DNA of 32,000 bases, taken from positions 1,890,001-1,922,000 of the forward strand of contig NZ_LT934425.1 in NCBI RefSeq assembly GCF_900232105.1, given 5' to 3'. The translations under genes and the position numbers were made by a program. Position 1 is the stretch's first letter. Each line of letters opens with the position of its first letter. The stretch is from Candidatus Kuenenia stuttgartensis (GTDB taxonomy: Bacteria; Planctomycetota; Brocadiia; Brocadiales; Brocadiaceae). Positions 4,226 to 31,253 of this stretch are shown here, one piece after another. The notes beneath the pieces are model-generated. The model made no database searches. It was given only the letters and a program-made list of their open reading frames with translations, and was not told where the DNA came from.

Positions 4226-4303
4226 TTTCTTATAAAAGCCGGGAGTTATTTATTGGTCGGTTAATGTGGTTAGTATGATATTTATGGGTACTCATAAATA
4301 GAA

Positions 4304-4338
4304 GCAAAAAAGCCAGCTCTTTTTGCTGGCTTTTTTGC
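4304..4338 (+). terminator. Rho-independent (bidirectional-type) terminator after DUF11 paralog 1
   Basis: Perfect 14-bp stem, gcaaaaaagccagc (4304-4317) / gctggcttttttgc (4325-4338), with a 7-nt loop. An A-tract and a T-tract are built into the arms. Confidence 0.8.
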
Positions 4339-4386
4339 TTTCTATAAAATTGTTTAAATAGCATGCATTTAATGGAGATACTATAT

Positions 4387-6202: not shown

Positions 6203-6427
6203 CTCGCTACCAAGCTCTGCAGACGGGGTCAAAATTAACTTTGTTTGTCTCAAAAGTGGGGATGAACTACTATAAACCCCCGTTTTTACTCATATTTTAC
6301 CGTTTTTCATCAACAAAGTGGGGAGATTAGACCCATAAAACAAAGCAAAATTACCCATTTGGCCAAGTATGTCCGGTTTGGGAACGAGCGTTTTTACCTT
6401 TTCAAAAATCTAATCTGTTGCAAAAAT
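6203..6427. repeat. MITE-like repeat, degenerate copy (same family as 29339-29558)
   Basis: Colinear by eye with 29339-29558. Shared blocks are ...ccaagc...cagac.gggtcaaa.t.aactttgtt.gtctcaaaagtgggg... and ...tttgggaacgagc.ttttt....ttcaaaaatcta.ctgtt.caaaaa. Confidence 0.65.
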
Positions 6428-6541
6428 TCCAATAATAGCGATGTTTGCCGCGCAGTTTTTACACAGTCGCGCCATCTGCGCCTTAGTGGTTATGAAGCAC
6501 TTCGTTTGAAAAGAACCTATATAAGCACAGACGGAAAAGAT

Positions 6542-7541: not shown

Positions 7542-10292
7542 TTAGGCAGCTTTTTCACCATAAAGGCGGCGCGTGCATTTTTTTCTGTATTCATGTATGA
7601 GTGAAAGGGTGAAAGGCAGGACGAATATGGACGTCACAAGGCTGCATGAGAGGCTGATTGCGAGGATCAATCCAAGGCTTGAGACCCCCCGGTGTGAGGC
7701 TAACGCCAAAGACCCAAATCCTATTATGGTTGTGAGTGAAGATATGATGATAGCCTTTCCCGTGCTGGTTTGATGTATCCAAAGGCCTTCCTTTTCATTT
7801 AACCGCATCATGGTGTGGATGCTGTTATCAATGCTGATGCCCAGTATTAGTGGAAATGCGATTACATTTGCCGGGTTTGGCTGAATACGGAACAATTTCA
7901 TAAATCCGATTGTCCATAAAATCGTCAGAAGCAGGGGATAAAGGGTGGTCAGGGTAAGTATTATATTTCTATAGGTTAAGAGGAGGATCGAAAAAATAAT
8001 AGCCAGTGTGTAGCCTCCGGCGATCAAAAACCCCCGCTTGATTAATCTGTTTGTATCATAAATCTGAAATGGCGCACCAGTAGCTTCAGGCTGTATACTC
8101 CGTATTTCAGATACAAACTCGCCCAGTTTTCCTTCCGTCCAGATGTCTTCTTTGGGAAAGATATATACCATGTTTTTCCCCGTTTTCCCGACAAATCGTT
8201 CTTTCAGGCCGTAGGGCAAATCGTCTATGGTCATGGGTTCGGGAACCATTCCATGCTTCAGGTATTCAAGATGTTTGCGAATAGTCCGTTGTCCTTTGGA
8301 TAATCTTTCCACAATTTCTGCTTCCGGCAAAGTTTCTGCATTCCGCAAAAAGGTATCTATTTTGTTGTTAAGGATGAGGAGGCGGTCGGCAAGGGGACCG
8401 CTACCCTCTTTCAGCAGCCCCATATTTTTGCCGAAAGTGAGCCGGAATCGCAGCCGTTCAAGAATGGTTTTCAATTCCTGATATCGTATCGCATCGCCGG
8501 CATTCCCGGGAATGGGTATAGTTTGTGCGAGGGCTTTCAACTCTTTTATAATGCCCACCTTTTTTTCCTGCTCGTCGGGAAGCACCGAAGCAATGCTTTC
8601 TACCTTTCCCACGCTTTTGAGCCGCAGGAGCTGTTCGGACACCCTCTCCGCTTCTTCAGGAGTATCTGCGACAATCGCCCCAAACCATGTGGCAGTGCCG
8701 GTTGATTGAATAATTTTTATTGCGTATCGGGTCGATTCCAGGTTGGGTGGCAGGAGGTTCAGCAGATTGTCGTCAAATTTTATGTGCCTTACAAAGAAGC
8801 ATGAACCAATTGCAAACAATATGGAAACAATCGTCAGGGGGACTTTGCATGAAACTACTATACTGAACATCCAGTTTTTTACCGGTGTACATAATGAAGC
8901 CGCCGGAAACATTTTTTTCTCTGCAGTAATGAATTTGTCACATAAGATGATAAGCGAGGAAAGCAAAAACAGCGTGGAGATCAATGCGAGCAAAATGCCC
9001 GTTCCCGCGATTAGCCCTAGCTCGCTTAATCCTTTAAAATCGATTAACAGAGTGGAGTAAAACGATATTGCCGTGGTAACAGCGCCCAGGATGATGCCTT
9101 TTCCGGTATTTTCCATTGATTTACATAATGCGTCCCTTTTCTCATGACCGAGCTTCCTGCATTCTGTGTAACGTAACATGAGGTGGATGCTGAAATCTAT
9201 TCCCAGACCGATTAAAACAACGGCAAATACAATGGAAAAGAGATTTAAGTACCCTATTGCCAATGTTGTAAAGCCAAACGTCCAGCTTATCGAACACAAA
9301 AGGGTGAGCATGCCGAGTAACGGCATTACGATTGAATTGAACGAGATGATAAAGAGTATAGCAACTCCCACAAGTGCGGCAATGGAAATGTATAACATTT
9401 CTTTCTGAGAAATTTCCATTTCGTCGGCTTCCATAGCAACGGTTCCTGTAAGGCCGATATCGACTCCGGGACACATTTCTTTTGCTGCTGCAACTTGTTT
9501 TCTGATAAAACTGGTGGAATCCGTACCCGTCAACAATCCGTCAATATCATTAACCGTTATCTCCATCAAGAGAATGCGTCCGTTGTCAAAGAGATTATAA
9601 TATGCGGTATCCGGCGAATCGCCGAAAGCCATAGCAGCGGGGGAAAAAGGTATTCCGCCGTGAGCTTGCATCGCTGTTTGCAATGGAGATTCCGGCATGA
9701 CATTGTTTTCACGGAGGTTGTTATTCATGTCCTGAAGAAGGGCGATAAGCCTGTCGATGTCTTCCGTGATGTTGCTGTCGTCTGTTGTTTGTGCATGGGT
9801 TTTCTGCGTCAGTGAATGCTCAAATTGGGCGAAAATATCTTCGTATTGGTATGCTTGGGGTAGTTGCGCCCTGTTTTCCATGGTATGTAACAAATCTGTT
9901 TTTATTTTGAGAAGTTCTTCAACATCAAGATAAAAGAGCCCCTTTTTCTCAAAATCTGTTTTGTTCACTTTATAGAAAATGTTTTTAATAAGGCGTGGAC
10001 TGTTCTTTAGCCTTTTTGCAATTTGTTCCGCAGCGTTAATAAGAGCATCCGTATTATCTGATTCCATTACGATGATATGGTTATCAACCTGGCCAAATTC
10101 GTCCATTAGTTTCAGGAATCTTTTATTATATTCCTTTTCTTTCGAGATAAGGGAGTTTCGGTCAGGGTTAAATGTTAAATACTTCACCGTATAGAGCGAA
10201 GAAATGAGCGTAAGCAGGAGGGCAACGAATAATACTATTTTAGGACGGGAGCACGCAATGGCAGCGATTTTTCTGGCAATGATTTCAAACAC
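7542..10292 (-). CDS. hpnN: RND/MMPL-family hopanoid transporter HpnN-like
   Basis: 916 aa. Two 6-TM bundles each follow a large soluble loop. The RND TM4/TM10-type motifs are duplicated (LIGLGIDFSIH and ILGISIDNSIH). It lies adjacent to hpnK/I/J. Confidence 0.75.
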   Translation of the reverse strand: MFEIIARKIAAIACSRPKIVLFVALLLTLISSLYTVKYLTFNPDRNSLISKEKEYNKRFLKLMDEFGQVDNHIIVMESDNTDALINAAEQIAKRLKNSPRLIKNIFYKVNKTDFEKKGLFYLDVEELLKIKTDLLHTMENRAQLPQAYQYEDIFAQFEHSLTQKTHAQTTDDSNITEDIDRLIALLQDMNNNLRENNVMPESPLQTAMQAHGGIPFSPAAMAFGDSPDTAYYNLFDNGRILLMEITVNDIDGLLTGTDSTSFIRKQVAAAKEMCPGVDIGLTGTVAMEADEMEISQKEMLYISIAALVGVAILFIISFNSIVMPLLGMLTLLCSISWTFGFTTLAIGYLNLFSIVFAVVLIGLGIDFSIHLMLRYTECRKLGHEKRDALCKSMENTGKGIILGAVTTAISFYSTLLIDFKGLSELGLIAGTGILLALISTLFLLSSLIILCDKFITAEKKMFPAASLCTPVKNWMFSIVVSCKVPLTIVSILFAIGSCFFVRHIKFDDNLLNLLPPNLESTRYAIKIIQSTGTATWFGAIVADTPEEAERVSEQLLRLKSVGKVESIASVLPDEQEKKVGIIKELKALAQTIPIPGNAGDAIRYQELKTILERLRFRLTFGKNMGLLKEGSGPLADRLLILNNKIDTFLRNAETLPEAEIVERLSKGQRTIRKHLEYLKHGMVPEPMTIDDLPYGLKERFVGKTGKNMVYIFPKEDIWTEGKLGEFVSEIRSIQPEATGAPFQIYDTNRLIKRGFLIAGGYTLAIIFSILLLTYRNIILTLTTLYPLLLTILWTIGFMKLFRIQPNPANVIAFPLILGISIDNSIHTMMRLNEKEGLWIHQTSTGKAIIISSLTTIIGFGSLALASHRGVSSLGLILAISLSCSLVTSIFVLPFTLSLIHEYRKKCTRRLYGEKAA

Positions 10293-10718
10293 CTTGCAAT
10301 CTCCGTATCTTAACCATCAATGACGAAACAGCGCTTCCGATGTAGAACAACACTGCAGTGGACAAGTCAGTGCTTTGAAAAGAAGGTGCAGCAAAATAAA
10401 TTGAACTATTTTTATAGAAGGTGTTTAACATTTTTTTCTCTTTTTCAGTTAGTGCGGGAAATATTCAGTACAACATTTGTTTTATAAGGGCTATATTATT
10501 ACACAATGCCTTATCTATGAAATACCCATACAAATACGTATTGTATATTTCTACCCTATAATAATGAATAACTTCAACTTAAAAATGAGTAACAATGCCG
10601 TCTGCCCGAAATACATGCAGAATAACAACCGGTAATTTCTTTGCATTTTTTGGAAAAATATTTAATGGTGAATTCCGGATTTTTGTAACAATTTAGTTTT
10701 TTGAAAAATGTATTACCT

Positions 10719-10856
10719 ATAAGCTCCGCAGGAGCGACCTGTCTCTTGTAAATCCATATTAAACAGGTCTGCCGGAATACGTACAGGCCGCTCCTACGGA
10801 GCTATTTACTCTATTGAATTTTATTGTGCTACAAACAGACCGCCCCTAACGGGGCG
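10719..10856. repeat. Dispersed intergenic repeat: long imperfect hairpin plus a GC mini-hairpin
   Basis: The arm ataagctccgcaggagcgacctgt (10719-10742) pairs with acaggccgctcctacggagctat (10783-10805). cgcccc-taac-ggggcg lies at 10841-10856. The left arm recurs at 24622-24648. Confidence 0.7.
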
Positions 10857-11035
10857 ACATGGTATTTTTTCTATACCGTGAATTTTTTAAAAAGTTAAAA
10901 TGTTACGAATTTTTTATTTTTTGTCTGTTTGGTTCCGGCTTGTCCATTTTAGGGGGGCTGCCATAAAACACATATATATGAACTATTACAAAAATAATTG
11001 TAAGAGCAGGGTATTTATAGTATCTTTGTTCCGAT

Positions 11036-11857
11036 ATGAAAAAGTGCGTTATTAATGCCGATGATTTTGGAAAATCTGATGCCGTGAATGTATGCGTGGA
11101 AACAGCGTTCAGGGAAGGTGTTTTATCCAGTGCCAGCATAATGGCGGGGGGGCTGGCGTTTCCCGGAGCCTGCAGCATTATTAAGGGGAACCCCGGACTT
11201 GGCGTGGGCATTCATCTTACACTGCTCCAGGGGCATTCGGTGTTAAAGCATAAGGATATTCCCGGACTTGCGGATGTTAAGGGAAATTTTTGCGAAAACC
11301 CTTTCTTTGCAGGGATGAATCTTTTCTTTAAAAGGGGAATTGCGGATCAGATACGACGCGAAATCAGGGCTCAAACAGAAAAGGCTTTAGAGTCGGGAAT
11401 ATCTCTGGGGCATTTGGACGGTCACTTAAACATACATCTTCATCCATCGGTAATATGGCATGCAGTGGAATTATGCAAGGTATATAACATCCCCTATATC
11501 AGGATACCCCGTGAGCCTCTATTTATGAATTTGTTCGTATCGGGGAAGAAGTTGTTGTATAAAATAAGCCATAAAATTATTTTTGAAATACTCGCCCGCA
11601 GGGCAGCGCCGTTACTAAAGGAATACGGCATCGGACATATTCCCCTGGTAATAGGCCTTCTGGAATCGGGGAATATTACGGCTGATTACCTGAAGAAGAC
11701 CCTTCCGGGAATTGATAAGACGCCTTTTGAAATATATTGTCATCCGGAGCCAAATAATGCTGACTTCAGCGCACTTATGGATAAGGATGTAAAAAAATGT
11801 ATTGTGGAAAATGGTATCAGGATTATTACTTATAGAGAAATAAAGGTGCAACAATGA
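11036..11857 (+). CDS. hpnK: YdjC/ChbG-family deacetylase, hopanoid biosynthesis protein HpnK-like
   Basis: 273 aa. The N-terminus CVINADDFGKSDAVNVCVETAFREGVLSSASIMAGG...GVGIHLTL fits the YdjC pattern (DDFG...N.gi......G.l.s.s.m). Clustered with hpnI/hpnJ. Confidence 0.8.
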   Translation: MKKCVINADDFGKSDAVNVCVETAFREGVLSSASIMAGGLAFPGACSIIKGNPGLGVGIHLTLLQGHSVLKHKDIPGLADVKGNFCENPFFAGMNLFFKRGIADQIRREIRAQTEKALESGISLGHLDGHLNIHLHPSVIWHAVELCKVYNIPYIRIPREPLFMNLFVSGKKLLYKISHKIIFEILARRAAPLLKEYGIGHIPLVIGLLESGNITADYLKKTLPGIDKTPFEIYCHPEPNNADFSALMDKDVKKCIVENGIRIITYREIKVQQ

Positions 11858-12225
11858 TAAAAACGTTCGGGTTCCTGTTTTTCATGCTCATAGCGCAAGC
11901 CTTCGGGCACACCTTCTTGAGCAAAGGGATGGTTGGGATAGGAGAACTTACCGCATACAGTGTAAGGGAAATACTTTTTTACGCCCTGGTTGTCATGAGA
12001 AATCCATGGATCGTTTTCGGGATATTTTTTCATGCGATCGGATTTTTTTCATGGATGTATATTCTTTCTTTCTCGAAATTAAGCCTGGTGCTTCCACTGA
12101 CGTCTCTCTGTTATATAATGACCGCCTTTTTAGCTACATTCATGCTCGGAGAAGAGGTTAGCCCTCTCAGGTGGGCAGGGACCGCAGTGATAGTATTTGG
12201 CGTTTACCTTGTTACTCAGGGTTGA
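11854..12225 (+). CDS. Small 4-TM DMT/EamA-like membrane protein (ArnE/ArnF-size), translationally coupled to hpnK
   Basis: 123 aa. The ATGA overlap at 11854-11857 joins the hpnK stop to this start. An EamA half-domain-like ending is present (LPLTSLCYIMTAFLATFMLGEEVSPLRWAGTAVIVFGVYLV). Confidence 0.7.
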   Translation: MIKTFGFLFFMLIAQAFGHTFLSKGMVGIGELTAYSVREILFYALVVMRNPWIVFGIFFHAIGFFSWMYILSFSKLSLVLPLTSLCYIMTAFLATFMLGEEVSPLRWAGTAVIVFGVYLVTQG

Positions 12226-13345
12226 TTTGAGCAATCGTTCCGTCTTTGCCAAGGACAAATTTTTTATTTTTCCAGGTAATTTTGTTGCCGCAAAAACTCA
12301 ATAACCATGTATAAAATCCCAAAAATTCCTGTATAGGAACGAGCAAATACACCCATGAAAATGGAATCTTGCTCAGCAGGGTTCCTGTTAGGGTAATGCT
12401 AAGAAAACGCAGAATGATTGCCGTGCCAAAAAGAGAGATAGCGGGGAGAGAAAAAGAGGTAAAAAAACACAATAGCAGCGACCAGACAGAACCAAAAGAT
12501 ATGCCAAATAAAAAATATCCGACAGGTTCTGAGACCCTGTACGTCTTGCATAATCGTAATTGACGTACAAAATAATTCTTAAAATTCGATTTCCCGACAA
12601 CGGTATTTACCAGAATTGTTGAGAGCGTAACGGGATTTCCGTTTTTACTGATTTTGTTTCCGAGATGGTAATCATCCGCCAGCATATTGCCTAACGCTTC
12701 GTACCCGCCAATCGATTCCAGCGACTGTTTTGTAAGAAACATTGAAGCCCCAAAACCGTAATTTATCCCATGAAAAATTTTTGCCATACACACGCCCTGG
12801 AATATATCAGAGAGTATGGTGATAACCTCGAGGTGCCCCCCGATCCCTTCGTTGTGTATTCCCCGATACAAATTGGTGACCATGCCGGCGTTCTTTATGT
12901 GGGTCAACGATTGCAGGAAGTCCTGTGGTACTAATACATCGGCGTCGGAAATATTAATGATATCATACCGTGCATGTTCCGTAAGGGTAATGAGTTTCCC
13001 CACCTTTTCGTTTGAATATTTCTTATGGTTGCTGCACAGGATTATTTTGCAGATGCCGGGAAATTCATTTTCCAGCTTTGTTAAAATGCCATAGGCGGGA
13101 TCGTCTTTTGAACTGACACCAAACAGAATTTCTATGGGAATGGCTCTTAAATCAAGGAAGGATTTGATATTGTTGTATAAATTGTATACCTCGCCGGTAA
13201 TGGGTTTTAAAAAACTGATCCCCTCGAAATGAGGCATCTCTGTTTCCTCTCCCTTCTCTCTGAATACCGTCAAAGTACATAAAAACGCAGCAATATAATA
13301 GGTAAACGATAAGAATGTGAGTATGGAGAAGCAATATACGGCCAT
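12212..13345 (-). CDS. hpnI: GT2 (ceramide-glucosyltransferase-like) glycosyltransferase HpnI-like
   Basis: 377 aa with an N-terminal TM, then ISFLKPITGE, a DAD motif (NISDADVLVP) and C-terminal TM helices. Its 3' end overlaps the convergent DMT gene by 14 nt (12212-12225). Confidence 0.75.
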   Translation of the reverse strand: MAVYCFSILTFLSFTYYIAAFLCTLTVFREKGEETEMPHFEGISFLKPITGEVYNLYNNIKSFLDLRAIPIEILFGVSSKDDPAYGILTKLENEFPGICKIILCSNHKKYSNEKVGKLITLTEHARYDIINISDADVLVPQDFLQSLTHIKNAGMVTNLYRGIHNEGIGGHLEVITILSDIFQGVCMAKIFHGINYGFGASMFLTKQSLESIGGYEALGNMLADDYHLGNKISKNGNPVTLSTILVNTVVGKSNFKNYFVRQLRLCKTYRVSEPVGYFLFGISFGSVWSLLLCFFTSFSLPAISLFGTAIILRFLSITLTGTLLSKIPFSWVYLLVPIQEFLGFYTWLLSFCGNKITWKNKKFVLGKDGTIAQINPE

Positions 13346-13600
13346 GGTTGATTAACGATGCATCATTATAAGCAACAAAAGGATAAAATTACACACGACG
13401 GAGATCGTTTGCAATACGGAAGGTAAAATAATTACATTTTACAAGCACTTCCTGAACAACAATGTTTGGCAAAAACCTCTCCGGTTTCTAACTATTTGTT
13501 ATTATAGACCTTGCACGTGGTTGTATGTTTATTTTTGCAAAGTGTTGATAATACAAAAAAAAGATTGCAAATCAAATAAAAAAATGCGTTAATTTTAAAC

Positions 13601-15034
13601 ATGATGAAAAAGACACTTTTATTAAATCCACCCTGTTTCGACCAATTTGACGGCGGCGCCGGCTCCCGCTATCAGGCTCGCAGGGAAGTGCGTTCCTTCT
13701 GGTATCCCACGTGGTTGTGTTATACCGCGGGACTCATCCCTGGAAGCAAAGTAGTTGACGCACCGGCGCAAGGGCTGCAGATTGATGAGGTCGTTTCCCT
13801 TGCAGGGGACTATGAGCTGGTTGTGATGTACACAAATACCCCCACATTATCCATTGACAGAGAAACTGCCAAAAAGATAAAGGCTGCCAATCCGGAATCG
13901 GTCATTTGTTTTGTTGGTCCGCACGTTACTATACAGCCGGAAGATGCGTTGCGTGAGGACAGGATTGTGGACATTGTTGCAAGGGGGGAGTTCGACATTA
14001 CCGTTAAGGAACTTGCGGAAGGCAAAGCGTTGCAAGAGGTGAAAGGGATAAGTTACCTGAATGGTTCGGGCGTTGTTCATAATGCTGACCGTGGATTTAC
14101 TACCGATCTGGACTCCCTTCCCTTTGTTACGAAAATCTATGAGCGTGATTTGAACTATAAAGATTACGAAATCCCTTATTTGCGCTATCCGTACCTGTCG
14201 ATTTATTCCGGACGGGGTTGTCCCTCACAATGTATTTACTGTCTTTGGCCACAAACGATGATGGGACATCAGTATCGCGTAAGGAGCGTTGATAATGTTA
14301 TCAGGGAGCTGATGTATTGCAAGGAACGGTTTCCCGAAGTGAAAGAGATTTTTTTTGACGACGACACATTTACCGCAAACAGAAAAAGGGTGCAGGAGTT
14401 TAGCCGGAAGGTAAAGGACCTTGGAATTACATGGTCTGCCACATCAAGGGCAAACCTCGACCGCGAAACGTTACAACAGATGAAGGAAGGCGGCCTCAGA
14501 TTGCTCGTAGTAGGCTATGAATCCGGCAATGATGAAATTCTGAAAAACGTTAAAAAAGGGATTACGATTGATCAGGCCAAACGGTTTACCGGCGAATGTA
14601 AAAGTCTCGGCATACAAATTCATGGCACTTTTATGCTGGGATTGCCGGGGGAGAACAGGTCTTCAATGGAAGACACCATCCGATTTGCCATAGAGATGGA
14701 CCCTGACACGATGCAGGTATCTATAGCATCGCCTTATCCGGGCACTGAATTTTATGATTATTGCGAAAAGAACGGATACTTAAAGACCGGCACTATGTTA
14801 AGTTCTTCCGGACATCAGCTATGCAACATAGAGTATCCGGACCTCCCTGCAGAAGAAATCATCCTCTGGACGGAAAAATTCTATAAAAAATTCTACTTCA
14901 GACCACGCATTATTCTGAGAATAGTAAAAAAAATGCTTCAGGACCCCGTGGAACGGAAAAGAAGATTAAGGGAAGGGCGGCAGTTCTTCAAAACAATGCG
15001 CTCGCGCAGAAAATATACGAAAAAAAGCTGCTGA
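13601..15034 (+). CDS. hpnJ: B12-binding-domain radical SAM protein HpnJ-like
   Basis: 477 aa. The N-terminus LLNPPCFDQFDGGAGSRYQARREVRSFWYPTWL matches my memory of HpnJ. The radical SAM cluster motif is GRGCPSQCIYC (CxxxCxxC). Confidence 0.8.
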   Translation: MMKKTLLLNPPCFDQFDGGAGSRYQARREVRSFWYPTWLCYTAGLIPGSKVVDAPAQGLQIDEVVSLAGDYELVVMYTNTPTLSIDRETAKKIKAANPESVICFVGPHVTIQPEDALREDRIVDIVARGEFDITVKELAEGKALQEVKGISYLNGSGVVHNADRGFTTDLDSLPFVTKIYERDLNYKDYEIPYLRYPYLSIYSGRGCPSQCIYCLWPQTMMGHQYRVRSVDNVIRELMYCKERFPEVKEIFFDDDTFTANRKRVQEFSRKVKDLGITWSATSRANLDRETLQQMKEGGLRLLVVGYESGNDEILKNVKKGITIDQAKRFTGECKSLGIQIHGTFMLGLPGENRSSMEDTIRFAIEMDPDTMQVSIASPYPGTEFYDYCEKNGYLKTGTMLSSSGHQLCNIEYPDLPAEEIILWTEKFYKKFYFRPRIILRIVKKMLQDPVERKRRLREGRQFFKTMRSRRKYTKKSC

Positions 15035-16606: not shown

Positions 16607-17731
16607 TCAGTCTACATGTGCCATTCCACCTAAATGGCTTTGCAGGGTGTCATACGACGCGTAACATTTCCTGGCGAAACGTACCTGCCAATAAAAGCCT
16701 GCCTTTTCCTTCGATAGTATTTCAAAATGTACCTTGCGTTTCTGCAAATGATCCATCATCCGTTGAATGTTTTCCTCTTCACGAAAACGGAGAAGAAACT
16801 CTTCCCTGATAAGTTCTCCGTCCGCAGCCTTTTTCACACTTTCGTAAATGGGTTTTAATAATGCTTCACCCAGGGCAGTAAAATCTTTAGGGTTTAATTC
16901 ATGGGATTGCTCATAACGATACATAGCTGCCCGGATTATACGATGAGTAAAGTATTCTGACGCTATTTCCGCCATGAGTGGAGCGTTGCAGCGTATATCG
17001 CGCAGGCATGACCCGAAAGTAACATATTTCAGGGTCTTTTCTTCTTTACACGTTGGTTTGAAAACAATACCCTCGCTGCCTGCATCATCTAATTCTTTAA
17101 CAATCTCTTTTAGGGCAAGGATATCTGCAGAAGAAAAACGCCCGAATCGCCTTACGGTAGGCATGCCATATTTATCGAAGATTCGTAACCGCTCTTCAAC
17201 AGGAAGGTTTCGAGAAGTATTTTTCAGCATTAAATCAAAGGCAAAAAAGCGTATATCTTCCTTAACGTAAGGGGGACATTCAATATTGTAAGGATTATCG
17301 GGACCCGCAAATTCCCCGCAAACAATTAGGTCGGGGTGATCGGCAAATATTTTTTGTATATCCAGAAAATCAGCTATCCTGTCTGTAGAAAAGGGGCAAA
17401 CATATCCACCTCGTGAAAAGACGAGTACTTTTCCCCGGATACAAACAATTCTCACATTATAACCATCAACCTTTTCTTCAACATAAAAAGGTTGCGCATA
17501 CGCATTCTTTAATCCGTTCTCCAGATGCAATATTCTTGCAATCCTTGGAAAGTCAAAAATAATGCCCGCACAGGTAACGATTGAGCATTTTCCCAAAGGG
17601 CCGACCTTTCTCATTATCCGGTAATAGGAGATGCCCTCATACTCTTCTCTGGCAACATCATGTTTGTCAATAGATTCCTGCCACCGGTCTTCAGAAATGC
17701 CTGCTTTTTTGATGACTTCGGTTAATGACAT
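16607..17731 (-). CDS. ATP-dependent RNA ligase, Rnl3 / Pab1020-like
   Basis: 374 aa. The nucleotidyltransferase motifs appear in order: I EEKVDGYNVR (Lys87), III IRFFAFDLM, IV SEGIVFKP, V TLKYVTFG. Size and N-terminal extension match the archaeal homodimeric Rnl3 type. Confidence 0.75.
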   Translation of the reverse strand: MSLTEVIKKAGISEDRWQESIDKHDVAREEYEGISYYRIMRKVGPLGKCSIVTCAGIIFDFPRIARILHLENGLKNAYAQPFYVEEKVDGYNVRIVCIRGKVLVFSRGGYVCPFSTDRIADFLDIQKIFADHPDLIVCGEFAGPDNPYNIECPPYVKEDIRFFAFDLMLKNTSRNLPVEERLRIFDKYGMPTVRRFGRFSSADILALKEIVKELDDAGSEGIVFKPTCKEEKTLKYVTFGSCLRDIRCNAPLMAEIASEYFTHRIIRAAMYRYEQSHELNPKDFTALGEALLKPIYESVKKAADGELIREEFLLRFREEENIQRMMDHLQKRKVHFEILSKEKAGFYWQVRFARKCYASYDTLQSHLGGMAHVD

Positions 17732-20903: not shown

Positions 20904-21392
20904 TCACTTTTCAATGATGAGTAACAATCCGCAGTCAGGGCATTCTTTCGTATCAGCACGAATACTATAACCGCAAGCAGGGCATCTTCCCAGCGATTCC
21001 CAGTCTTTAGAAGCCTTGATTTCAGGATACTTTTGTGTATGGAATTCCTCAATACAGTTATGTGCGGCGAGTGCATCCCCTTTTGTTGTCAAGAGAAGAT
21101 ACCGGCATCCACACTTTCCCGTACTACAGCCAGGGGCTAAGACAATTTTAGAAAAAAACCCTTTTCTTAAAAGTAAATCCGATAACTCACGAACGCTTTC
21201 TCTCCCTTCTTCCCTGATGGTGACCAATTCATCGTGGTGAGACGCGGGAATGTCCGGCTTTTTCTTTCTTTCTTTTTCAACCTCTTCCGGCATTATCAGG
21301 AGAACTCCGCAGTCGGCGCATAAAGAAATATGCGCATAATACTCGGATTCGCATTTTGGGCAAATTTTTACATTTTCAGTAGTCATGAACAA
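20904..21392 (-). CDS. Double zinc-ribbon protein with central DUF2007-like domain
   Basis: 162 aa. N-terminal CPKC-x13-CADC, C-terminal CPAC-x11-CPDC, and a middle segment ELVTIREEGRESVRELSDLLLRKGFFSKIVL. Confidence 0.65.
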   Translation of the reverse strand: MFMTTENVKICPKCESEYYAHISLCADCGVLLIMPEEVEKERKKKPDIPASHHDELVTIREEGRESVRELSDLLLRKGFFSKIVLAPGCSTGKCGCRYLLLTTKGDALAAHNCIEEFHTQKYPEIKASKDWESLGRCPACGYSIRADTKECPDCGLLLIIEK

Positions 21393-24787: not shown

Positions 24788-26491
24788 TATAGTATTACCC
24801 TGTAAAAACTTCTTTTTTTGTAAGTTTTCCTTCGTGTTCTTTGTACTACTATCCATCAATTTCTTGTTTTTTATGCGTGTTTTTCATGCCGCCATTTCCG
24901 TAAGTGCTTTAATATCAAGGGCTGAAGCGGTCATCAGTGAACAAGAGAACTTCTGGCCTTTCTCCGTCAAAACATAGCGGTTGGCCCTCGGAACTTTGCG
25001 GATTAGACCGTGTGCCCGCAGCATCTTTATCCGTCGGGTCGTTCGTCCGGAATATTTCTTTTGCTGATCCTTGCCGGATTGTTCGGATTCCCGGTAAAGC
25101 CACTTACGCAAATCATGGTTGCGGAATCCATTTATCGCGTTTTCGCCTTTGGACAGGAACATCAGCATCTGGTAATCATCCTGCTGCCAGGGATTCAAAC
25201 CTCGATACCTCTTGCCCTCTTTGACAACCTTGTTACAAGCGCTGCTCACCACTTCTTTCAGTTTCTCCTCTACCTGAGCCGCCGCCAAAGCATCCCCATA
25301 ACGATCATTGCATTGTTGGCTCACCTCACACCGTCGATGAAGATCGCTTACGCCCTTACGCATCTTCTGCCATGACGCCGGTTTGCCTTCATCATCATTG
25401 GGACTCCGAAAGACCTTAAAGTCCCGCGTATTATTGATCGTTGTCTCAATACGCAAGAGACTACCGCTCTTGTTATACATCTTCACTGAATTATAATTCA
25501 CACTGTGCTTGACCCGTATACCTTCATAGCGTCTTCGATAGTCGCTGATAACCTCATCAGGGGCAGCGCCTGCAAGGTTACGCCTACCCAAATACTTCAT
25601 CACCGAAGAACTGTCGCAAACCCGCATCGCATGATGAACAAACGATGGAAACAACTCCTCCAATGCCTCAACCGATTTAAACATGATGTCCGTCGCCCAC
25701 TCCGTCTCATCCGCAGACCAGTAATACTCCGGTTCCAACGGACGAAGAATCTGCGACAATGCCGGGCAACTGCCCAACGCAAGCCCGTTCAGCAGCTTCG
25801 CCCAGTCAGTCTTAAGCTGCTCATGGAGCAGAACCTGCGCAGCCGCAATATCCTCTATACGCACAAAACAGTTGCCGTCCTTAACATAATCAATACCTTG
25901 CTTCTGAAGTTGCCGCTCCAGCCAATGACGACCATTGAGACAAATGAAAATATTAAACGGCGCCCAACTCTGGATACGAACATGACCAAAACCAAACACT
26001 GGATCGTTAAAATAATGATACACAAAGACACACTTGCGGGGCGCCATTACCAACTCGAGCTTCTTGCTGGCCTTGTTGCCCTTGACCATCGGCGCAATAC
26101 AAGGCTCTACCACACTCAACAGGCAGATGGAACCTTCCGTAATCCTCTTATCCGCCGCGATCTGGCGAGCCAACTTCTCCTTATCAACACCGCTGCTCAT
26201 CAAATACCGCACCTCGATACCCAAATCTTTCGCCCGCGATTCACAACTGTCTCGCACCTGTGCCGTAAGCCCATTGACCCAACCGGAAAAATCCTTAAGC
26301 AGAATTCTCGCTTGGTTCATGAATGTTCCCATCCCACGCTCACTGGCCAACCACCGCAATGTCCCGCGAAAACGAATCCTGTCCAGACCGCTTATTGCAC
26401 CCACGATCCTGTCTCGATATAATTCCATCAACTTATTCATAAGTAGTGTCCTCCAAATTGTCTGATTACTATTTACGAGGATACTACTATA
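24788..26491 (-). mobile_element. Tentative IS-like single-gene insert (about 1.7 kb) bounded by imperfect ~20-bp inverted repeats
   Basis: tatagtattaccctgtaaaa (24788-24807) compared with the reverse complement of 26471-26491, tatagtagtatcctcgtaaat (about 17/21 with one gap). Codon usage differs from the neighbouring genes. I found no target-site duplication. Confidence 0.3.
24884..26440 (-). CDS. Conserved-looking hypothetical protein (518 aa) with C-terminal winged-helix-like tail; possible novel transposase or mobile-element protein
   Basis: Long uninterrupted ORF. The C-terminus RTTRRIKMLRAHGLIRKVPRANRYVLTEKG is wHTH-like. I recognise no catalytic motif. Lys codons run AAG:AAA about 15:2 in the first ~290 codons, whereas neighbouring genes are AAA-dominant. 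Confidence 0.7.
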   Translation of the reverse strand: MNKLMELYRDRIVGAISGLDRIRFRGTLRWLASERGMGTFMNQARILLKDFSGWVNGLTAQVRDSCESRAKDLGIEVRYLMSSGVDKEKLARQIAADKRITEGSICLLSVVEPCIAPMVKGNKASKKLELVMAPRKCVFVYHYFNDPVFGFGHVRIQSWAPFNIFICLNGRHWLERQLQKQGIDYVKDGNCFVRIEDIAAAQVLLHEQLKTDWAKLLNGLALGSCPALSQILRPLEPEYYWSADETEWATDIMFKSVEALEELFPSFVHHAMRVCDSSSVMKYLGRRNLAGAAPDEVISDYRRRYEGIRVKHSVNYNSVKMYNKSGSLLRIETTINNTRDFKVFRSPNDDEGKPASWQKMRKGVSDLHRRCEVSQQCNDRYGDALAAAQVEEKLKEVVSSACNKVVKEGKRYRGLNPWQQDDYQMLMFLSKGENAINGFRNHDLRKWLYRESEQSGKDQQKKYSGRTTRRIKMLRAHGLIRKVPRANRYVLTEKGQKFSCSLMTASALDIKALTEMAA

Positions 26492-26647: not shown

Positions 26648-27262
26648 TTGAAAGGTATTGAAAAACCGATTACACCTGAAGATACAGAAAATGGCAATCC
26701 GATGAAACAGCAGGGCGAGATGAAACATTCCGGGAAAAAGGGTACAGAACAAACCACCATTACAGAAATGCTTGCATCCCACAACGTTTTATTGGAAGAA
26801 GTGAAATCACTGATTGAAACCCGCCTGTCTTACGACGAAACAAAAGAAAAGACCATTGAGAAACTCCACGAAGAACTGAAACTCTATCGTGACAATTTCA
26901 TTTCCCAGTCGCAAAAACCTATTTTCATTGACCTGATTATGCTTTATGATGATTTCATGCAGGTACTCTCGGTTTTCGAAGAGAAGCAGGATATGACAAA
27001 GGATGATATTGCAGCAATGAGGCATAATATGCATACGATAAAGGAAGGGCTTCTGGAAATTCTGTATCGTAGAGAGGTAACACTGTATCACAAACATCCG
27101 GATTTTCTTGATTATAAACTTCACAAAACGATAGGTACGGTACCAACCAGCATAGAAAGCGAAAATAACCAGGTGGCGAAGATTGTAAAACCGGGTTTTT
27201 GCTGGAACGGCAAGACGCTAAGGCCTGAGGAAGTAATAATAAAGAAATATCGTAAAGAATGA
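26648..27262 (+). CDS. Divergent GrpE-like nucleotide exchange factor
   Basis: 204 aa. TTG start with AGAGGGAG 5 nt upstream; an alternative ATG lies at 26702. LHEELKLYRDNF...PIFIDLIMLYDDFMQVL fits the GrpE helical region. The ending VAKIVKPGFCWNGKTLRPEEVIIKK fits the GrpE beta-domain ending. Confidence 0.65.
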   Translation: MKGIEKPITPEDTENGNPMKQQGEMKHSGKKGTEQTTITEMLASHNVLLEEVKSLIETRLSYDETKEKTIEKLHEELKLYRDNFISQSQKPIFIDLIMLYDDFMQVLSVFEEKQDMTKDDIAAMRHNMHTIKEGLLEILYRREVTLYHKHPDFLDYKLHKTIGTVPTSIESENNQVAKIVKPGFCWNGKTLRPEEVIIKKYRKE

Positions 27263-27360
27263 TGCAGCGTACGGCACGCATCTTTGCCGGTGGAAAGTAC
27301 CCGTGTCGGTTTTTCTGAAAAACGATGCTCTGGAAAAAACAAAAACAGGAGAAGAGAACT

Positions 27361-28962
27361 ATGTCGCCTAAAAAAACAACCGTAGTGGGAATTGATCTGG
27401 GCACTACTTTTTCAGCCATTGCGCACATTAATGAGGACACCGGCAAAGCAGAGATTATTCCCAGTCCCGAACAAGACCGTATCACGCCTTCTGTGGTCCT
27501 TATTGAAAAGGTGAATGATATTATTGTAGGAGAAATAGCAAAACAGAATGCTGTAGCGGAACCAAACAAGGTCGTTGAGTTTGTAAAAAGACAAATGGGA
27601 AAACCAAAAGAAGATAAAAAGGATGAGCAGGGGAATATACTGGTAAAGGGCTGGTGTTTTGAGCATGAGGGGAAAAAGTACAGCGCCCAGGAAATTTCGG
27701 CGTTTATCCTGAAAAAACTGAAAAATGACGCCGAAGAGCGGCTGGGAACAATGATAACAGATGCGGTAATTACATGTCCGGCCTATTTTGGGGATCCCGA
27801 GAGGGCTGCAACCAAAGAGGCTGGCGTCATTGCGGGATTTAACGTGTTGGCGGTAATTGACGAACCGGTGGCCGCCGCGCTTTCTTATGGACTCGATAAA
27901 CTCAAACAGGATCAAAATGTCTTTGTCTTTGACCTTGGCGGTGGAACATTTGACGTGGTTATCCTTGAAATCAAAGGCGGAAAAATACGGGAGGTGGTGG
28001 TTAATGGCGACCACTTGCTTGGTGGCAAGGACTGGGATGATGAAATCATCCGGTATGCATCAAAGATTTTTAAGGAAAAATACGGAACATACCCGCTGGA
28101 TGATCTTTCAGCGTATCAGGATTTGCAATTACGCGCAATTAAGGCAAAAGAAGAACTCACAAAACGCGAAAAGACAAAGATTATGTGCGTGCACGCGGGA
28201 AATACCCTCCTGGTAGAATTGACCAGAGATACGTTTGAAGAAATTACAAAATATCTCATTGACCGTTGCAAGGTATTATGCGGAATAGCGCTGAGCGATG
28301 CAAACATGACGTGGCAAGACGTCGGGGCGGTTCTCCTGGTGGGCGGTTCTACAAGAATGCCCATGATAAGGAATATGATTGCAGAAATAAGCGGAAAAAC
28401 GCCCAGCGATGAACTAAACCCTGATGAATGCGTAGCCCTTGGCGCTGCCTGGCACGCCGCAATGTTAAGTATTTCCAGCGGCGATATGCCCGTTGAAGTG
28501 GTGAAGAGGCTCGCCGGAGTGGAAGTGCAAAAAGTCGCTTCACATAATCTGGGCATCATCGCATTGGACGGAGATGGGAATGAGCGGAATTTTCTAATGA
28601 TACCAAGGTTTACTCCCCTGCCGTTTGAAAAAAAGGATATTTTTAAAACACTCACCGACAACCAGACTTCCATTCTTCTGCGGATTATGGAAGGCGGAAT
28701 TATGGGAGAAAACGATACATGCGACCCCCTGGACTGCAATATGATCGCGCAAGGTTCGATACGGGATATCCCCCCTTCACCAAAAGGCAGCCCCATCGAG
28801 GTGGCCTATAAATACAATGATATTGGAATACTGGAGGTGCACGGTATTCATCTCCCATCAGGAAAAGAGGTAGTTATAACAGTGGAGCATACCGGCGGTC
28901 TGACTGCCCAGGAAATAAAAGCTGCAACTATGAACATTGAAAAAGCCTCAATAACAAGTTAA
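27361..28962 (+). CDS. Hsp70-family ATPase lacking the C-terminal helical lid (HscC-like size)
   Basis: ATG at 27361 with AGGAG upstream; 533 aa. Motifs: VVGIDLGTTFS, DAVITCPAYF, IDEPVAAALSYG, FDLGGGTFDV, GDHLLGGKDWD, LLVGGSTRMP, NPDECVALGAA. A beta-sandwich SBD follows and the protein ends there. Confidence 0.9.
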   Translation: MSPKKTTVVGIDLGTTFSAIAHINEDTGKAEIIPSPEQDRITPSVVLIEKVNDIIVGEIAKQNAVAEPNKVVEFVKRQMGKPKEDKKDEQGNILVKGWCFEHEGKKYSAQEISAFILKKLKNDAEERLGTMITDAVITCPAYFGDPERAATKEAGVIAGFNVLAVIDEPVAAALSYGLDKLKQDQNVFVFDLGGGTFDVVILEIKGGKIREVVVNGDHLLGGKDWDDEIIRYASKIFKEKYGTYPLDDLSAYQDLQLRAIKAKEELTKREKTKIMCVHAGNTLLVELTRDTFEEITKYLIDRCKVLCGIALSDANMTWQDVGAVLLVGGSTRMPMIRNMIAEISGKTPSDELNPDECVALGAAWHAAMLSISSGDMPVEVVKRLAGVEVQKVASHNLGIIALDGDGNERNFLMIPRFTPLPFEKKDIFKTLTDNQTSILLRIMEGGIMGENDTCDPLDCNMIAQGSIRDIPPSPKGSPIEVAYKYNDIGILEVHGIHLPSGKEVVITVEHTGGLTAQEIKAATMNIEKASITS

Positions 28963-29130
28963 CACCGATGCACCTAACTTCTCAATAAGTTGAGGTAGAC
29001 AACCCACTCGCTTCCTTTGTTAATGGTAAATTACGCAAGATTAACCCTGCGTTGGGTGCATTCCCGATTTTTTGTATATTTTCACATATTTTGTTTTTTT
29101 ACAAAGAATTGTAATACTTTAGTCCTATGA

Positions 29131-29558
29131 AAAAAACCGCTCGTTCCCAAGCTCCGGCTTGGGAACGGGATTGTTTGAGAAGCTCCAGCTTCGAATGGAA
29201 AAGGGAATGAACCCATTATGTTAGCTTGGAGGCTTTTCAGTATGTTACCCAAGATATTTGGAAACCTCTTTTGAATCGAATAATACACGAAGCTTCGCTT
29301 ACCGGCTAAATGGAAGCTAGAGCTTCCAACGCAATTACGTTCCCAAGCCGGACAGACTGGGTCAAATGAACTTTGTTGTCTCAAAAGTGGGGGCAACTCC
29401 TCGCATTATGCCTGTTTTAGACCCTATTTAGTGCTGTTTTACCATTAAAGTGGAGAATGCCTGTCGTAAAATAGGATAAAATTGTTCATTTGACCCAGTC
29501 TGCGGAGCTTGGGAACGAGCATTTTTGTTTTTCAAAAATCTAAACTGTTACAAAAAAT
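29131..29558. repeat. Nest of MITE-like repeats: core 178-bp element 29339-29516 with 33-bp terminal inverted repeats, plus an abutted-ends mini-palindrome at 29144-29167
   Basis: Left TIR gttcccaagccggacagactgggtcaaatgaac (29339-29371). The right TIR (29484-29516) has reverse complement gttcccaagctccgcagactgggtcaaatgaac, differing only in a 4-nt block. gttcccaagc-tccg-gcttgggaac lies at 29144-29167. The flank 29517-29558 is also shared with 6385-6427. Confidence 0.7.
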
Positions 29559-29648
29559 CAGGAATGCTCCTCCCTGCGTTTATGCGGTTGATTTCGTGGT
29601 TGTTTGTCCATTTAAAACAGAACTTTTCAACAAACAGAAAAACAAGCC

Positions 29649-31253
29649 ATGGCTACGTCGTTTGATCCTGATAAATATTTCCACAACAATGAATGGAAAA
29701 GCGCCATCGACCCTTCTAAAAACCACTATGAACGTTTGGGATTAAGGTTCGGCGAAAATTATTCCGCCCAAAATATAACAAAATCTTTTCAGCAAAGATA
29801 TGACTGGTGGCGCGAAGCGAACAAACGATACAACACAAACCCCGCCAACACGAAAACAAAAGAAACAGGGCCCGCCTCTGCCGAAGCAATGGGAAAACTG
29901 CAGGAGGCGTATGTAGTATTGACCAATCCTTCAAAAAAATCAGCATACGACAAACAACTCTCAACCGACAGCGGTAAAAAGGCAGGAGAAGAATTTAAAA
30001 AAATGATTCATATTGTTGCAAGCGACAACGCGCTCACGCAGGAGGGGAAAAAGATACTTCTTAATTACGCTGATACCCTGGGACTTAGCCAGGCAACAGC
30101 TTCCGATATGATAACAACAGAAACAGACAAGATGGGGGTGAGGCAACATCAACCATCTTCTCATTCAAGGCCAATTATTGTCGTCAGACAGTCCGGCACT
30201 TCTCAACAACCTGAGCTCCCAAACTATTATGCTCTTTTGGAAATAGACGCAACTGCCGGAGAGCATGAAATTCTGGAAGCATATAAAAGAAAAGTGTCTC
30301 TTTGGGAAAGCCTGAGTTCAAACCCAAAATTCAGGGACTTTGCCCTGCGAAGAATAGGTACCTTGCGGGAGGCCGTTGATATACTCCTCAATCATGACCG
30401 GCGAAGGAGATATGACTATGAATTATTTGGCAAAGGGAAAAAACCTGTCCGGAAAGCCTCGCAAGGAAAAAACAAAACCATAACGGCTGTCCTTGGCGGT
30501 GTAGCAATGGTAACTGTGGCGGCAATGATTGCCGTTGTTTTAAACAAGGGCAAGAATTTTCCTCCGGCAATAGTTGCCCCCGAGCCGTATATTTCCAAAA
30601 ACAAGGACATGCATGATGTTTTGGTGCAGGAAGATGTATCTCCATTTTATAAGGGGTGGCTGGGCGCAACAATCCAGGAGATTGACCCTGCACTGGCGGA
30701 GGCTTTTGGTGTTGACATTACAGAAGGAGTCATTGTGACGGAGGCACTGGGTAACTCTCCCGCGGAATCCGCAGGACTCCGGAGCGGTGATATCATTGTT
30801 GAGTTTGACGGGACGAAGTTGCGGCACGCAAATCACCTGAATTTCATGGTGGAACAAACAGGAGCAGGGAAGCATGTTGCGATGAGAATCATACGAGACC
30901 GCAAAGAAATGGAGCTAAATGTGATTCTTGGCGAACGACCAACTGTACTCTATTCTGCTACGTCACCGGAAACGATACCTCCCGAAAAGAACATTGGCAT
31001 AATGGTACAAAACGTATCCGAAAATGAAAACGGGGGTGAGGGGGTATTGGTTATTGATGTGCAACCGGAAAGCGCGGCTGCAAAATATAATATAGAAAAA
31101 GGTGATATCATTACGGAAATAAATAGAAATAAAATTTCAAATGTCGCTGAATTTATAAGGGCATTGATCTCTGCTGATGCCGATGAAAAAATACTCCTGC
31201 ATATAAAGAAAAGCGATATTTCGCTTTATCTTACCATCGATCCTGCGGAATAA
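29649..31253 (+). CDS. Membrane protein: two HPD-less J-like domains + TerB/DjlA-like segment (cytoplasmic), one TM helix, two HtrA-type PDZ domains (periplasmic)
   Basis: 534 aa. J-like 1: HYERLGL...ITKSFQQRY...KLQEAYVVLTNPSKKSAYDKQL, with NTNP where HPD is expected. J-like 2: NYYALLEID...ILEAYKRKV...LREAVDILLNHDRRRRYDYELF, with SSNP. TM helix TITAVLGGVAMVTVAAMIAVVL (aa 277-298) preceded by a K/R-rich stretch. PDZ1: GWLGATIQEIDPALAEAFGV...GVIVTEALGNSPAESAGLRSGDIIVEFDG. PDZ2: GVLVIDVQPESAAAKYNIEKGDIITEINRNKI. Confidence 0.8.
   Translation: MATSFDPDKYFHNNEWKSAIDPSKNHYERLGLRFGENYSAQNITKSFQQRYDWWREANKRYNTNPANTKTKETGPASAEAMGKLQEAYVVLTNPSKKSAYDKQLSTDSGKKAGEEFKKMIHIVASDNALTQEGKKILLNYADTLGLSQATASDMITTETDKMGVRQHQPSSHSRPIIVVRQSGTSQQPELPNYYALLEIDATAGEHEILEAYKRKVSLWESLSSNPKFRDFALRRIGTLREAVDILLNHDRRRRYDYELFGKGKKPVRKASQGKNKTITAVLGGVAMVTVAAMIAVVLNKGKNFPPAIVAPEPYISKNKDMHDVLVQEDVSPFYKGWLGATIQEIDPALAEAFGVDITEGVIVTEALGNSPAESAGLRSGDIIVEFDGTKLRHANHLNFMVEQTGAGKHVAMRIIRDRKEMELNVILGERPTVLYSATSPETIPPEKNIGIMVQNVSENENGGEGVLVIDVQPESAAAKYNIEKGDIITEINRNKISNVAEFIRALISADADEKILLHIKKSDISLYLTIDPAE

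Follow-up and report, generated by a model that had tools for sequence, protein, structure and literature searches.

What can a J-domain do once it has lost its His-Pro-Asp (HPD) motif? This question is raised by a 32,000-nucleotide stretch of the Candidatus Kuenenia stuttgartensis genome (contig NZ_LT934425.1, positions 1,890,001 to 1,922,000; hereafter the window, meaning the whole stretch analysed), in which one open reading frame (ORF) at 29649-31253 encodes two HPD-less J-like domains, a transmembrane (TM) helix and a pair of PDZ domains. We refer to its product as the J-PDZ protein. Upstream of it lie genes for a GrpE-like protein and a lid-less Hsp70, a context absent from an earlier note that had described the ORF from the sequence. 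The HPD is treated as the indispensable signature of J-domains, and a large census of J-domain proteins (JDPs) removed sequences with no HPD or with multiple J-domains (PMC10410713). HPD-less type IV JDPs have been called enigmatic, and it has been asked whether they are accidental or selected (PMC13254874); lid-less bacterial "DnaK derivates" have been called unexplored dark matter (PMC13580251). The locus joins these two puzzles in a three-gene system, which makes the accident-or-selection question directly testable. On balance, we favour the reading that a dedicated Hsp70 system uses the J-PDZ protein as its membrane adaptor, the two meeting at a co-evolved, HPD-independent J-Hsp70 interface.

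Domain layout of the J-PDZ protein and its missing HPD

The J-PDZ gene and its parts, with residues in amino acids (aa), are as follows.

29649..31253, forward strand: the J1-hairpin-J2-TM-PDZ1-PDZ2 protein, 534 aa, ATG start
29649..29720, forward strand: conserved N-terminal extension, aa 1-24 (FDPDxYF..GEWK.A.D), with F5, P7, D8, Y10, F11, W16 and D21 invariant
29721..29957, forward strand: J1, a J-fold domain, aa 25-103, with a helix II longer by 16 residues (YDWWREANKRYNTN)
29847..29855, forward strand: HPD-equivalent of J1, N67-T68-K69, by MAFFT alignment with E. coli DnaJ and CbpA
29958..30143, forward strand: inter-J helical hairpin, aa 104-165, weakly DjlA/TerB-like
30144..30218, forward strand: disordered linker, aa 166-190 (predicted local distance difference test, pLDDT, <50 at 168-188; 30% identity)
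30219..30422, forward strand: J2, a J-fold domain of canonical length, aa 191-258, by profile comparison with the PDB (Pfam stretch 192-256)
30306..30314, forward strand: HPD-equivalent of J2, E220-S221-L222, by phmmer/hmmsearch alignments to DNAJB2 and DNAJB8 and the MAFFT census
30480..30548, forward strand: sole TM helix, aa ~278-300, by hydropathy and flanking charges, N-in/C-out
30651..30938, forward strand: PDZ1, aa 335-430, with the carboxylate-binding loop G-W-L-G, by Pfam PDZ_6/PDZ_2 and alignment to DegQ (4a8a)
30990..31250, forward strand: PDZ2, aa 448-534, with the loop N-I-G-I (Pfam PDZ_2 stretch 449-530; DegQ aligned up to residue 426/436)

The 16-residue extension of J1 helix II, the 24-residue N-terminal extension and the hairpin at ~104-165 are additions to the earlier description of the protein.

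The N-terminal segments do score as J-domains. The Pfam DnaJ model (PF00226) matched the ORF in two stretches (E 2.4e-10); its 40.8 bits exceed the gathering cutoff of 27.8, which J1 by itself would not reach. A J2 profile built from 12 orthologs matched solved J-domains over their full length (E 2.5e-15), and all 39 PDB matches of the J1 profile were J-domains (best E 8.9e-6). The two units also matched each other in hhalign (probability 95%, E 3.2e-8). The AlphaFold2 (AF2) model of J1 alone reached a pLDDT of 87, being confident in one of five models, and its top 11 Foldseek matches were J-domains (probability 0.75-1.0, template-modelling score 0.5-0.66, E 0.016-1.3). In the AF2 model of aa 1-272 (pLDDT 78), two J units flank the hairpin, with a disordered linker at 168-188, and the confident structural matches were all J-domains (e.g., 5nro_B, template-modelling score 0.82, root mean square deviation 2.0 Å). 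J2 is thus unambiguous as a J-domain, and the evidence for J1 is weaker but specific.

That both J-like segments lack the HPD, as the earlier note had claimed, was borne out by the alignments, in which the HPD-equivalent positions were located with E. coli DnaJ and CbpA for J1 and with human class B J-domains for J2. No HPD occurs anywhere in 19 aligned family members. Even the relaxed pattern H[PA][DE] is found within the J-like segments of none of the 19; its two matches lie outside them, at aa 193 of P0013 (J2 helix I) and aa 697 of P0018 (C-terminal domain). In J2, "WHP-DKNP" of DNAJB8/B2 stands against "WESLSSNP", with a one-residue insertion. In J1, the spacing from N67 to Leu84 of helix III is +17, as from H33 to I50 in DnaJ, and the loops of sister clades read HP(V/T/Y/L/I) or NP(L/V/K) at the triad columns. 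Two other placements in J1, R55-E56-A57 suggested by hhalign and the "NP" of N64-P65 guessed by eye as an HPD remnant, were both discarded on the grounds of these sister-clade loops, the +17 spacing and the MAFFT alignment with DnaJ and CbpA. Among 51 non-redundant family members, all of which have J1, the triad holds H in 9 and P in 37, and D or E at the third position in none. J2 is present in 26 of the 51, and its triad never holds H or P (three read I-N-D). On these predicted features, the J-PDZ protein falls within the published definition of type IV, or pseudo-, JDPs (PMC13254874).

We then compared the conservation of the segments, as mean pairwise identity among 15 non-redundant anammox orthologs. 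J1 is 69% identical (74% in helix II and the loop), the hairpin 53%, J2 53%, PDZ1 55% and PDZ2 48%, with 30% in the linker, 28% in the TM helix and 19% in the juxtamembrane region. The N-terminal extension, at 70%, is kept in distant relatives too. The most conserved part of the protein is therefore the very region that stands in for the HPD loop, which argues that J1 is maintained and is not decaying.

The J1-hairpin(-J2) family is broader than the PDZ proteins. Full-length J-PDZ homologs number 17, those with a name all coming from Kuenenia, Brocadiaceae or Planctomycetota, and the orthologs are annotated in their sources merely as "PDZ domain-containing protein". At E <=1e-30, the wider family comprises 28 representatives at 50% identity, whose C-terminal parts are an Ig-like beta domain with multiple TM helices, PEGA, PDZ, FGE-sulfatase-like, LamG-like or SH3-like domains. 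Its taxonomic breadth rests on metagenomic proteins and three loci. The members P0056-P0130 are diverse and apparently unnamed, some having no J2 and some being seemingly soluble; P0100, for example, combines J1, the hairpin and an FGE-sulfatase domain with no obvious TM helix.

These patterns bear on the possibility that the J-like segments are non-functional relics, that the protein acts through its PDZ pair alone, for instance by scaffolding in the periplasm or by regulating a protease, and that its adjacency to an Hsp70 gene is historical. Loss of the HPD normally abolishes J function, deviations from it may be "accidents of evolution" (PMC13254874), and bacterial DnaK derivates are suspected of having lost J responsiveness (PMC13580251). 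However, J1 and its loop are more conserved than the PDZ domains, suggesting strong purifying selection; what stays constant across the family is the J1 module and not the PDZ pair; and synteny with Hsp70 and GrpE is held across phyla. We consider the relic explanation very unlikely.

The C-terminal half was predicted to lie on the other side of the membrane. The TM helix is the sole stretch of the J-PDZ protein with a mean Kyte-Doolittle value >1.6, and it is preceded by 7 K/R and followed by 3, so the N-terminal 277 residues are predicted to be cytoplasmic and the PDZ pair to be outside. The charges thus indicate an N-in/C-out orientation, in agreement with the earlier assignment of the J-like modules to the cytoplasm. 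Only ~35 residues separate the TM helix from PDZ1.

The earlier description of the C-terminal half, a DegP/DegQ-like PDZ pair with no protease, likewise held. Three Pfam PDZ models each match the protein twice. The Do/DegP model TIGR02037 aligns its positions 233-433 of 434 with residues 333-529 (E 1e-39), scoring 136.8 bits against a cutoff of 416, with only the PDZ1-PDZ2 portion matched; residues 233-426 of E. coli DegQ align with the same half (E 7.4e-20). A profile search of the ORF gave no match to the protease families PF13365 or PF00089. In PDZ1, "GLLG" of DegQ aligns with "GWLG"; within this loop W337 never varies, and conservation of G336 and G339 is 90% or higher. Both peptide-binding loops are intact, and the most likely ligands of the pair are peptide segments that are C-terminal or unfolded.

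The adjoining Hsp70 and its J-domain receptor site

The two upstream genes of the module, and the Hsp70 segments discussed below, are the following.

26648..27262, forward strand: GrpE-like gene, first in the module, 204 aa from a TTG start (PF01025, E 1.5e-14)
27325..28962, forward strand: lid-less Hsp70 ("DnaK derivate"), ORF of 545 aa (PF00012, E 4.5e-126, profile positions 1-516 of 599)
27850..27870, forward strand: Hsp70 "AVIDEPV", corresponding to DnaK R167-T173 (R167 to A, N170 to D, T173 to V), by alignment with Geobacillus, M. tuberculosis and E. coli DnaK
28519..28533, forward strand: Hsp70 interdomain linker "VEVQK" in place of DnaK V389-LLL-D393, with an insertion of ~11 residues ahead of it

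The true start of the GrpE-like gene may be downstream of the listed TTG. The Hsp70 orthologs all begin at what is its 13th codon, the ATG at 27361 (M13), which is probably the real start. Against the NCBIfam DnaK model this Hsp70 scored 431 bits, the cutoff being 648. Because the protein stops at about DnaK residue 525, the helical lid is missing. It is 37% identical to DnaK and 30% to E. coli HscC, and by its predicted architecture it fits the loosely defined class of "DnaK derivates" (PMC13580251).

The gene order is conserved. In all 14 loci examined, 11 close and three distant, the Hsp70 gene lies directly 5' of the J-like gene, and a GrpE homolog is detectable in 12 of the 14 (9 of 11 close, 3 of 3 distant). 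The loci span from Kuenenia and Brocadiaceae to one Verrucomicrobiae metagenome-assembled genome (MAG), and the order is kept despite differing C-terminal domains of the partner (PEGA, FGE-sulfatase). The three distant loci (L012-L014), one of them from the Verrucomicrobiae MAG, each carry in this sequence GrpE, a short Hsp70 (520-540 aa) and a J1-protein. The closest locus, in a Candidatus Kuenenia MAG (L004), is 93% identical to the window. Species-representative genomes, scanned with an alignment of close homologs, yielded eight loci, all in Brocadiales-type MAGs; a broader alignment of 23 sequences contained no stretch of sufficient conservation for such a scan.

In two relatives, an Hsp70-VWA fusion is encoded just 5' of GrpE (3548-5638 in L003, 3616-5649 in L012); L003 also has a rhomboid protease gene there, and downstream in L012 are genes for a PEGA protein and a TraG-like protein.

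VWA-NTPase pairs occur in conflict systems, and the neighbours of these two loci could be taken to mean that the module belongs to a system for phage defence or other conflict, with an Hsp70-type ATPase at its core. However, PADLOC gave no significant match for GrpE, the Hsp70, the J-PDZ protein or the Hsp70-VWA fusion (best E 0.007), no effector domain is present, and the anammox module is a conserved chromosomal locus amid housekeeping genes. A conflict system is hardly credible here.

We next considered the residues with which an Hsp70 reads the HPD. In the co-crystal of DnaK with a J-domain, H33 contacts the L391 carbonyl of the linker, P34 contacts P419, D35 contacts R167 and Q378, and K48 contacts D477; D211 is also among the contacts (PMC8215388). 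D35 perturbs the R167-D393-D481 network of DnaK, and alteration of any of these residues renders J stimulation ineffective (PMC7289447). The corresponding positions in the 11 close module Hsp70s and in the three distant ones (given in the order L012, L013, L014) are as follows.

DnaK R167: A in the close; A (L012), Q (L013) and G (L014) in the distant
DnaK N170: D in the close; D in L012 and L014, N kept in L013
DnaK T173: V/I in the close; V in L012 and L014, T kept in L013
DnaK D208: K in the close; alignment ambiguous in the distant
DnaK E209-D211: deleted in the close; D211 loop likewise shortened in the distant
DnaK E217: R/T in the close; Q, K, R in the distant
DnaK linker VLLL: V(E/H/Q/T)(V/M)(Q/E) in the close; similar in the distant
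DnaK D393: K in the close; K, N, K in the distant
DnaK D477: K/R in the close; R, R, K in the distant
DnaK D481: I/A/M/T/D in the close; S, N, N in the distant

R167 is kept in none of the 14 module Hsp70s, the loop that holds D211 carries a four-residue deletion, and the linker reads GVEVQK where canonical DnaK has DVLLLD. The ATPase residues D8, K70, E171, D194, T199 and D201 are all kept, together with P419. As a control, E. coli HscC keeps R167, N170, T173 and D393. These four residues are also kept in the Hsp70-VWA fusion of L003, and the fusion of L012 reads Q167 and N393. The E. coli DnaK reference used for numbering fits the literature in its length (638 aa) and at all 27 residues checked, and its key segments agree with alignments to DnaK in the PDB. 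With R167, D393 and D477 absent, the adjacent Hsp70 could not read an HPD. The alignments show a matching loss in the two partners, of the receptor residues on the Hsp70 (R167 in 0 of 14) and of the HPD on the J side (D/E in 0 of 51 J1 domains).

In most anammox orthologs, the J1 position equivalent to DnaJ K48 is Glu; in the window it is G82 (29892-29894). A charge swap between this E82 and K/R477 of the Hsp70 (the K477-equivalent in the window is at aa ~496) was considered as a reversal of the known K48-D477 salt bridge and proved inconsistent, given G82 in the window and the clade of P0018, where K occurs together with K477; it is kept as a weak lead only.

The state of the Hsp70 bears on what the HPD-less domains might do. 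The earlier note had proposed a regulatory, inhibitory or tethering function in place of ATPase activation. A non-canonical role is indeed likely and tethering stays in play, whereas an inhibitory decoy of the canonical system is disfavoured, since conserved J-like domains beside an Hsp70 with no HPD-reading residues suggest a maintained, rewired partnership.

The same note had invoked a Pam16-style logic, in which the pseudo-J unit would restrain or position an HPD-bearing J-protein that acts on a normal Hsp70. The mitochondrial import motor offers a precedent, in that Pam16 (DKE) pairs with Pam18 (PMC13254874), and a chain with two J-folds might in principle bring them together as a J/J pair. 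The comparison did not support this proposal. No HPD-bearing J-protein was called in the six Pfam-annotated loci or among the window neighbours, the remainder of the genome lying outside this search. Both J units are HPD-less, which excludes an intramolecular Pam16/Pam18 pair; the adjacent Hsp70 has no R167, D393 or D477; J2 is missing in half of the family; and the Pam16 family model (PF03656) did not match the J-PDZ protein at E up to 10. We regard a Pam16-style arrangement as highly improbable.

A candidate membrane adaptor and competing readings

In the adaptor reading that we favour, the three genes would form one system, consisting of a GrpE-like exchange factor, a lid-less Hsp70 and a J-like membrane adaptor. 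The cytoplasmic N-terminal half of the adaptor (J1 with its long helix II, the hairpin and J2) would dock the private Hsp70, with J1, helped by J2 where present, binding at the junction of the nucleotide-binding domain, the linker and the β-subdomain of the substrate-binding domain (SBD). The Asp35-Arg167 trigger contact would be replaced by an interface centred on the near-invariant J1 motif RYDWWREvNKRY..NPANTKTK.TGP. The TM helix would tie this docking platform to the DegQ-type PDZ pair in the periplasm, or possibly in the anammoxosome lumen, where the pair would bind peptide termini of unfolded or exported proteins. An ATP-driven chaperone cycle in the cytoplasm, reset by GrpE, could in this way be coupled to protein binding in a compartment with no ATP. 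The steps that we infer here are the binding of J1 and J2 to the Hsp70, stimulation as opposed to tethering, the PDZ ligands, and the direction of information or force. Loss of the R167-D393-D481 network argues for an altered allostery, and the dedicated GrpE and the extreme conservation of the J1 loop argue for a regulated nucleotide cycle. For anammox bacteria, which possess an extra membrane-bounded compartment, the arrangement suggests a route by which a cytoplasmic chaperone could be linked to protein handling beyond a membrane. Should binding or stimulation be demonstrated, the pair would constitute a natural orthogonal J-Hsp70 interface, useful for the study of Hsp70 allostery and for insulated chaperone pairs.

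Several points weigh against this reading. The module Hsp70 does not carry the six-residue "GrpE signature" (DnaK 290-295; equivalent to 289-294 in the module Hsp70s of L001-L014), the loss of which in HscA accompanies GrpE independence (PMC8215388) and is read in the same way in HscC, so the partnership with GrpE is deduced from synteny alone; despite the loss, the adjoining divergent GrpE either binds differently or does something else. Changes at R167, D393 or D481 in DnaK uncouple its domains and abolish J stimulation (PMC7289447), so the module Hsp70 may not respond to J-domains at all, which would leave its J-like neighbours to some other function. The support for the J1 fold includes weak Foldseek E values (0.016-1.3) and a single confident AF2 model of five, and the DnaK numbering rests on an E. 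coli reference whose agreement with the literature was checked at 27 sites. Finally, an insertion that contains a terminator-like hairpin may have broken the co-transcription of the Hsp70 and J-like genes in this strain.

28963..29612, no strand assigned: window-specific insertion of ~650 bp with nested inverted repeats, after the Hsp70 stop codon and before the J-like gene

This insertion is missing from the Kuenenia MAG locus L004, where the gap is ~36 bp. It consists of four nested inverted-repeat pairs (I1-I4) and includes four exact CGTTCCCAAGC cores, all inside it, with the terminator-like hairpin at 29140-29169. It matched no Rfam family, giving sub-threshold noise only, and looks like a miniature inverted-repeat transposable element (MITE)-like or palindromic repeat element.

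The principal competitor of the adaptor reading reverses the direction of control, and differs from it in this respect only. The J-PDZ protein would be a transmembrane sensor regulated by the Hsp70, comparable to BiP/Ire1 or DjlA/DnaK-Rcs: the J-like domains would recruit the private Hsp70 to the adaptor's cytoplasmic region and keep it in a single state, and a PDZ ligand outside or titration by clients inside would switch that state. Such a sensor would account for the membrane anchor combined with a sensor-type PDZ pair as in DegS/RseP, and for the extracytoplasmic domains that vary across the family, as they do in sensor families. The weak DjlA-like segment also points this way, the disordered linker (aa 166-190), with its low conservation, might offer the Hsp70 a substrate site, and a lid-less SBD would allow quick and reversible binding. 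However, no output domain (kinase, protease, DNA-binding or cyclase) is present in the J-PDZ protein or conserved beside its gene, and some relatives appear soluble (P0100). With these points and its overlap with the adaptor reading taken together, we hold the sensor to be possible but doubtful.

A stronger form of the adaptor reading is likewise no more than tentative. In this form, the J-PDZ protein and the Hsp70 would be an orthogonal pair in which the HPD-Arg167 trigger, held to be universal, has given way on both partners to an interface that still drives a GrpE-reset ATPase. The TM helix would connect this motor with a PDZ "holdase" where no ATP is available, in the periplasm or the anammoxosome lumen, and the J1 module would be a general adaptor across phyla. 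If this were true, cytoplasmic ATP hydrolysis would power or gate the binding and release of proteins across a membrane, and J1 would plug a private Hsp70 into extracytoplasmic or soluble domains of many sorts (PEGA, FGE-sulfatase, LamG-like) in several phyla.

Related systems and neighbouring genes

The J-PDZ protein shares with Pam16/Tim16, DNAJB13 and the type IV JDPs of P. falciparum a four-helix J fold in which the HPD is non-conservatively replaced (PMC13254874), and with Pam16 also its membrane association. It differs from the type IV JDPs in being bacterial, in carrying two pseudo-J units per chain, the first with extensions of helix II and the N-terminus, and in having no HPD-bearing partner J-protein at the loci examined; its partner is a private Hsp70 in which the HPD-receptor residues are replaced.

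The closest functional analogy is HscC with DjlC/DjlB, a specialised short Hsp70 beside membrane-anchored class C J-proteins that carry an HPE motif (PMC8215388). HscC and the module Hsp70 share the deletion of the D211 loop, the loss of the "GrpE signature" at 290-295 and an insertion in L1,2 (PMC8215388). By contrast, HscC keeps R167, N170, T173 and D393, retains a lid in shortened form and is regarded as independent of GrpE, whereas DjlC and DjlB keep the H and P, are anchored at the C-terminus and have no extracytoplasmic domain. No significant sequence similarity was detected between DjlC/DjlB and the J-PDZ protein. We also considered whether the module Hsp70 is an HscC ortholog and rejected this, on account of its identity to HscC (30%, vs 37% to DnaK) and the A/D/V/K that it has where HscC has R/N/T/D.

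DjlA is comparable as a membrane-anchored J-protein with a TerB-like helical region beside its J-domain. It differs in its N-terminal TM helix, its single C-terminal J-domain with an HPD, its housekeeping DnaK partner and its having no PDZ domain. In the AF2 model, the hairpin region of the J-PDZ protein forms helices at 94-123, 131-143 and 148-162 (pLDDT 80-90). The NCBIfam DjlA model (NF006948) matches aa 120-217 with 29.2 bits against a cutoff of 162, and with this score, the different domain order and no HPD, membership in DjlA was rejected.

With the HtrA family (DegP/DegQ/DegS), the J-PDZ protein has in common an extracytoplasmic PDZ1-PDZ2 pair with a carboxylate-binding loop; unlike these proteases, it has no trypsin-like domain or catalytic triad, and its PDZ pair sits on a membrane anchor that continues into J-like modules in the cytoplasm. 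The bacterial DnaK derivates, e.g., of Myxococcus, are alike in their conserved nucleotide-binding domain, altered linker and missing lid (PMC13580251), but the module Hsp70 is set apart by the conserved partnership with GrpE and an HPD-less J adaptor and by the pattern of substitutions in its J receptor. The grpS-sglK pair of Myxococcus was considered as a precedent and set aside: SglK is a full DnaK (PRK00290) that complements an E. coli dnaK mutant (PMC8265645). Our literature search found no description of a module of GrpE, a lid-less Hsp70 and an HPD-less J-protein, and a search on anammox proteomes gave nothing usable on the localisation or expression of the J-PDZ protein.

The other genes of the window that we annotated are listed below.

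2558-5979: tandem paralogs (555 and 538 aa) of DUF11/CARDB repeat proteins, probably at the cell surface
6359-7177: Lcl C-terminal-domain protein, after the DUF11/CARDB pair
7542-15034: MMPL-family transporter, YdjC-like protein, EamA fragment, family 21 glycosyltransferase and B12-binding radical SAM enzyme
16607-17731, reverse strand: Pab1020-type RNA ligase (RNA_ligase and Lig_C)
20904-21392, reverse strand: small double-zinc-ribbon protein
24884-26440, reverse strand: ORF of 518 aa, 5' of the module

The 518-aa ORF has zero Pfam matches and is not conserved beside the module elsewhere. The cluster at 7542-15034 could be a locus for lipid or envelope biosynthesis. The families of the Pab1020-type RNA ligase and the double-zinc-ribbon protein are more familiar from archaea.

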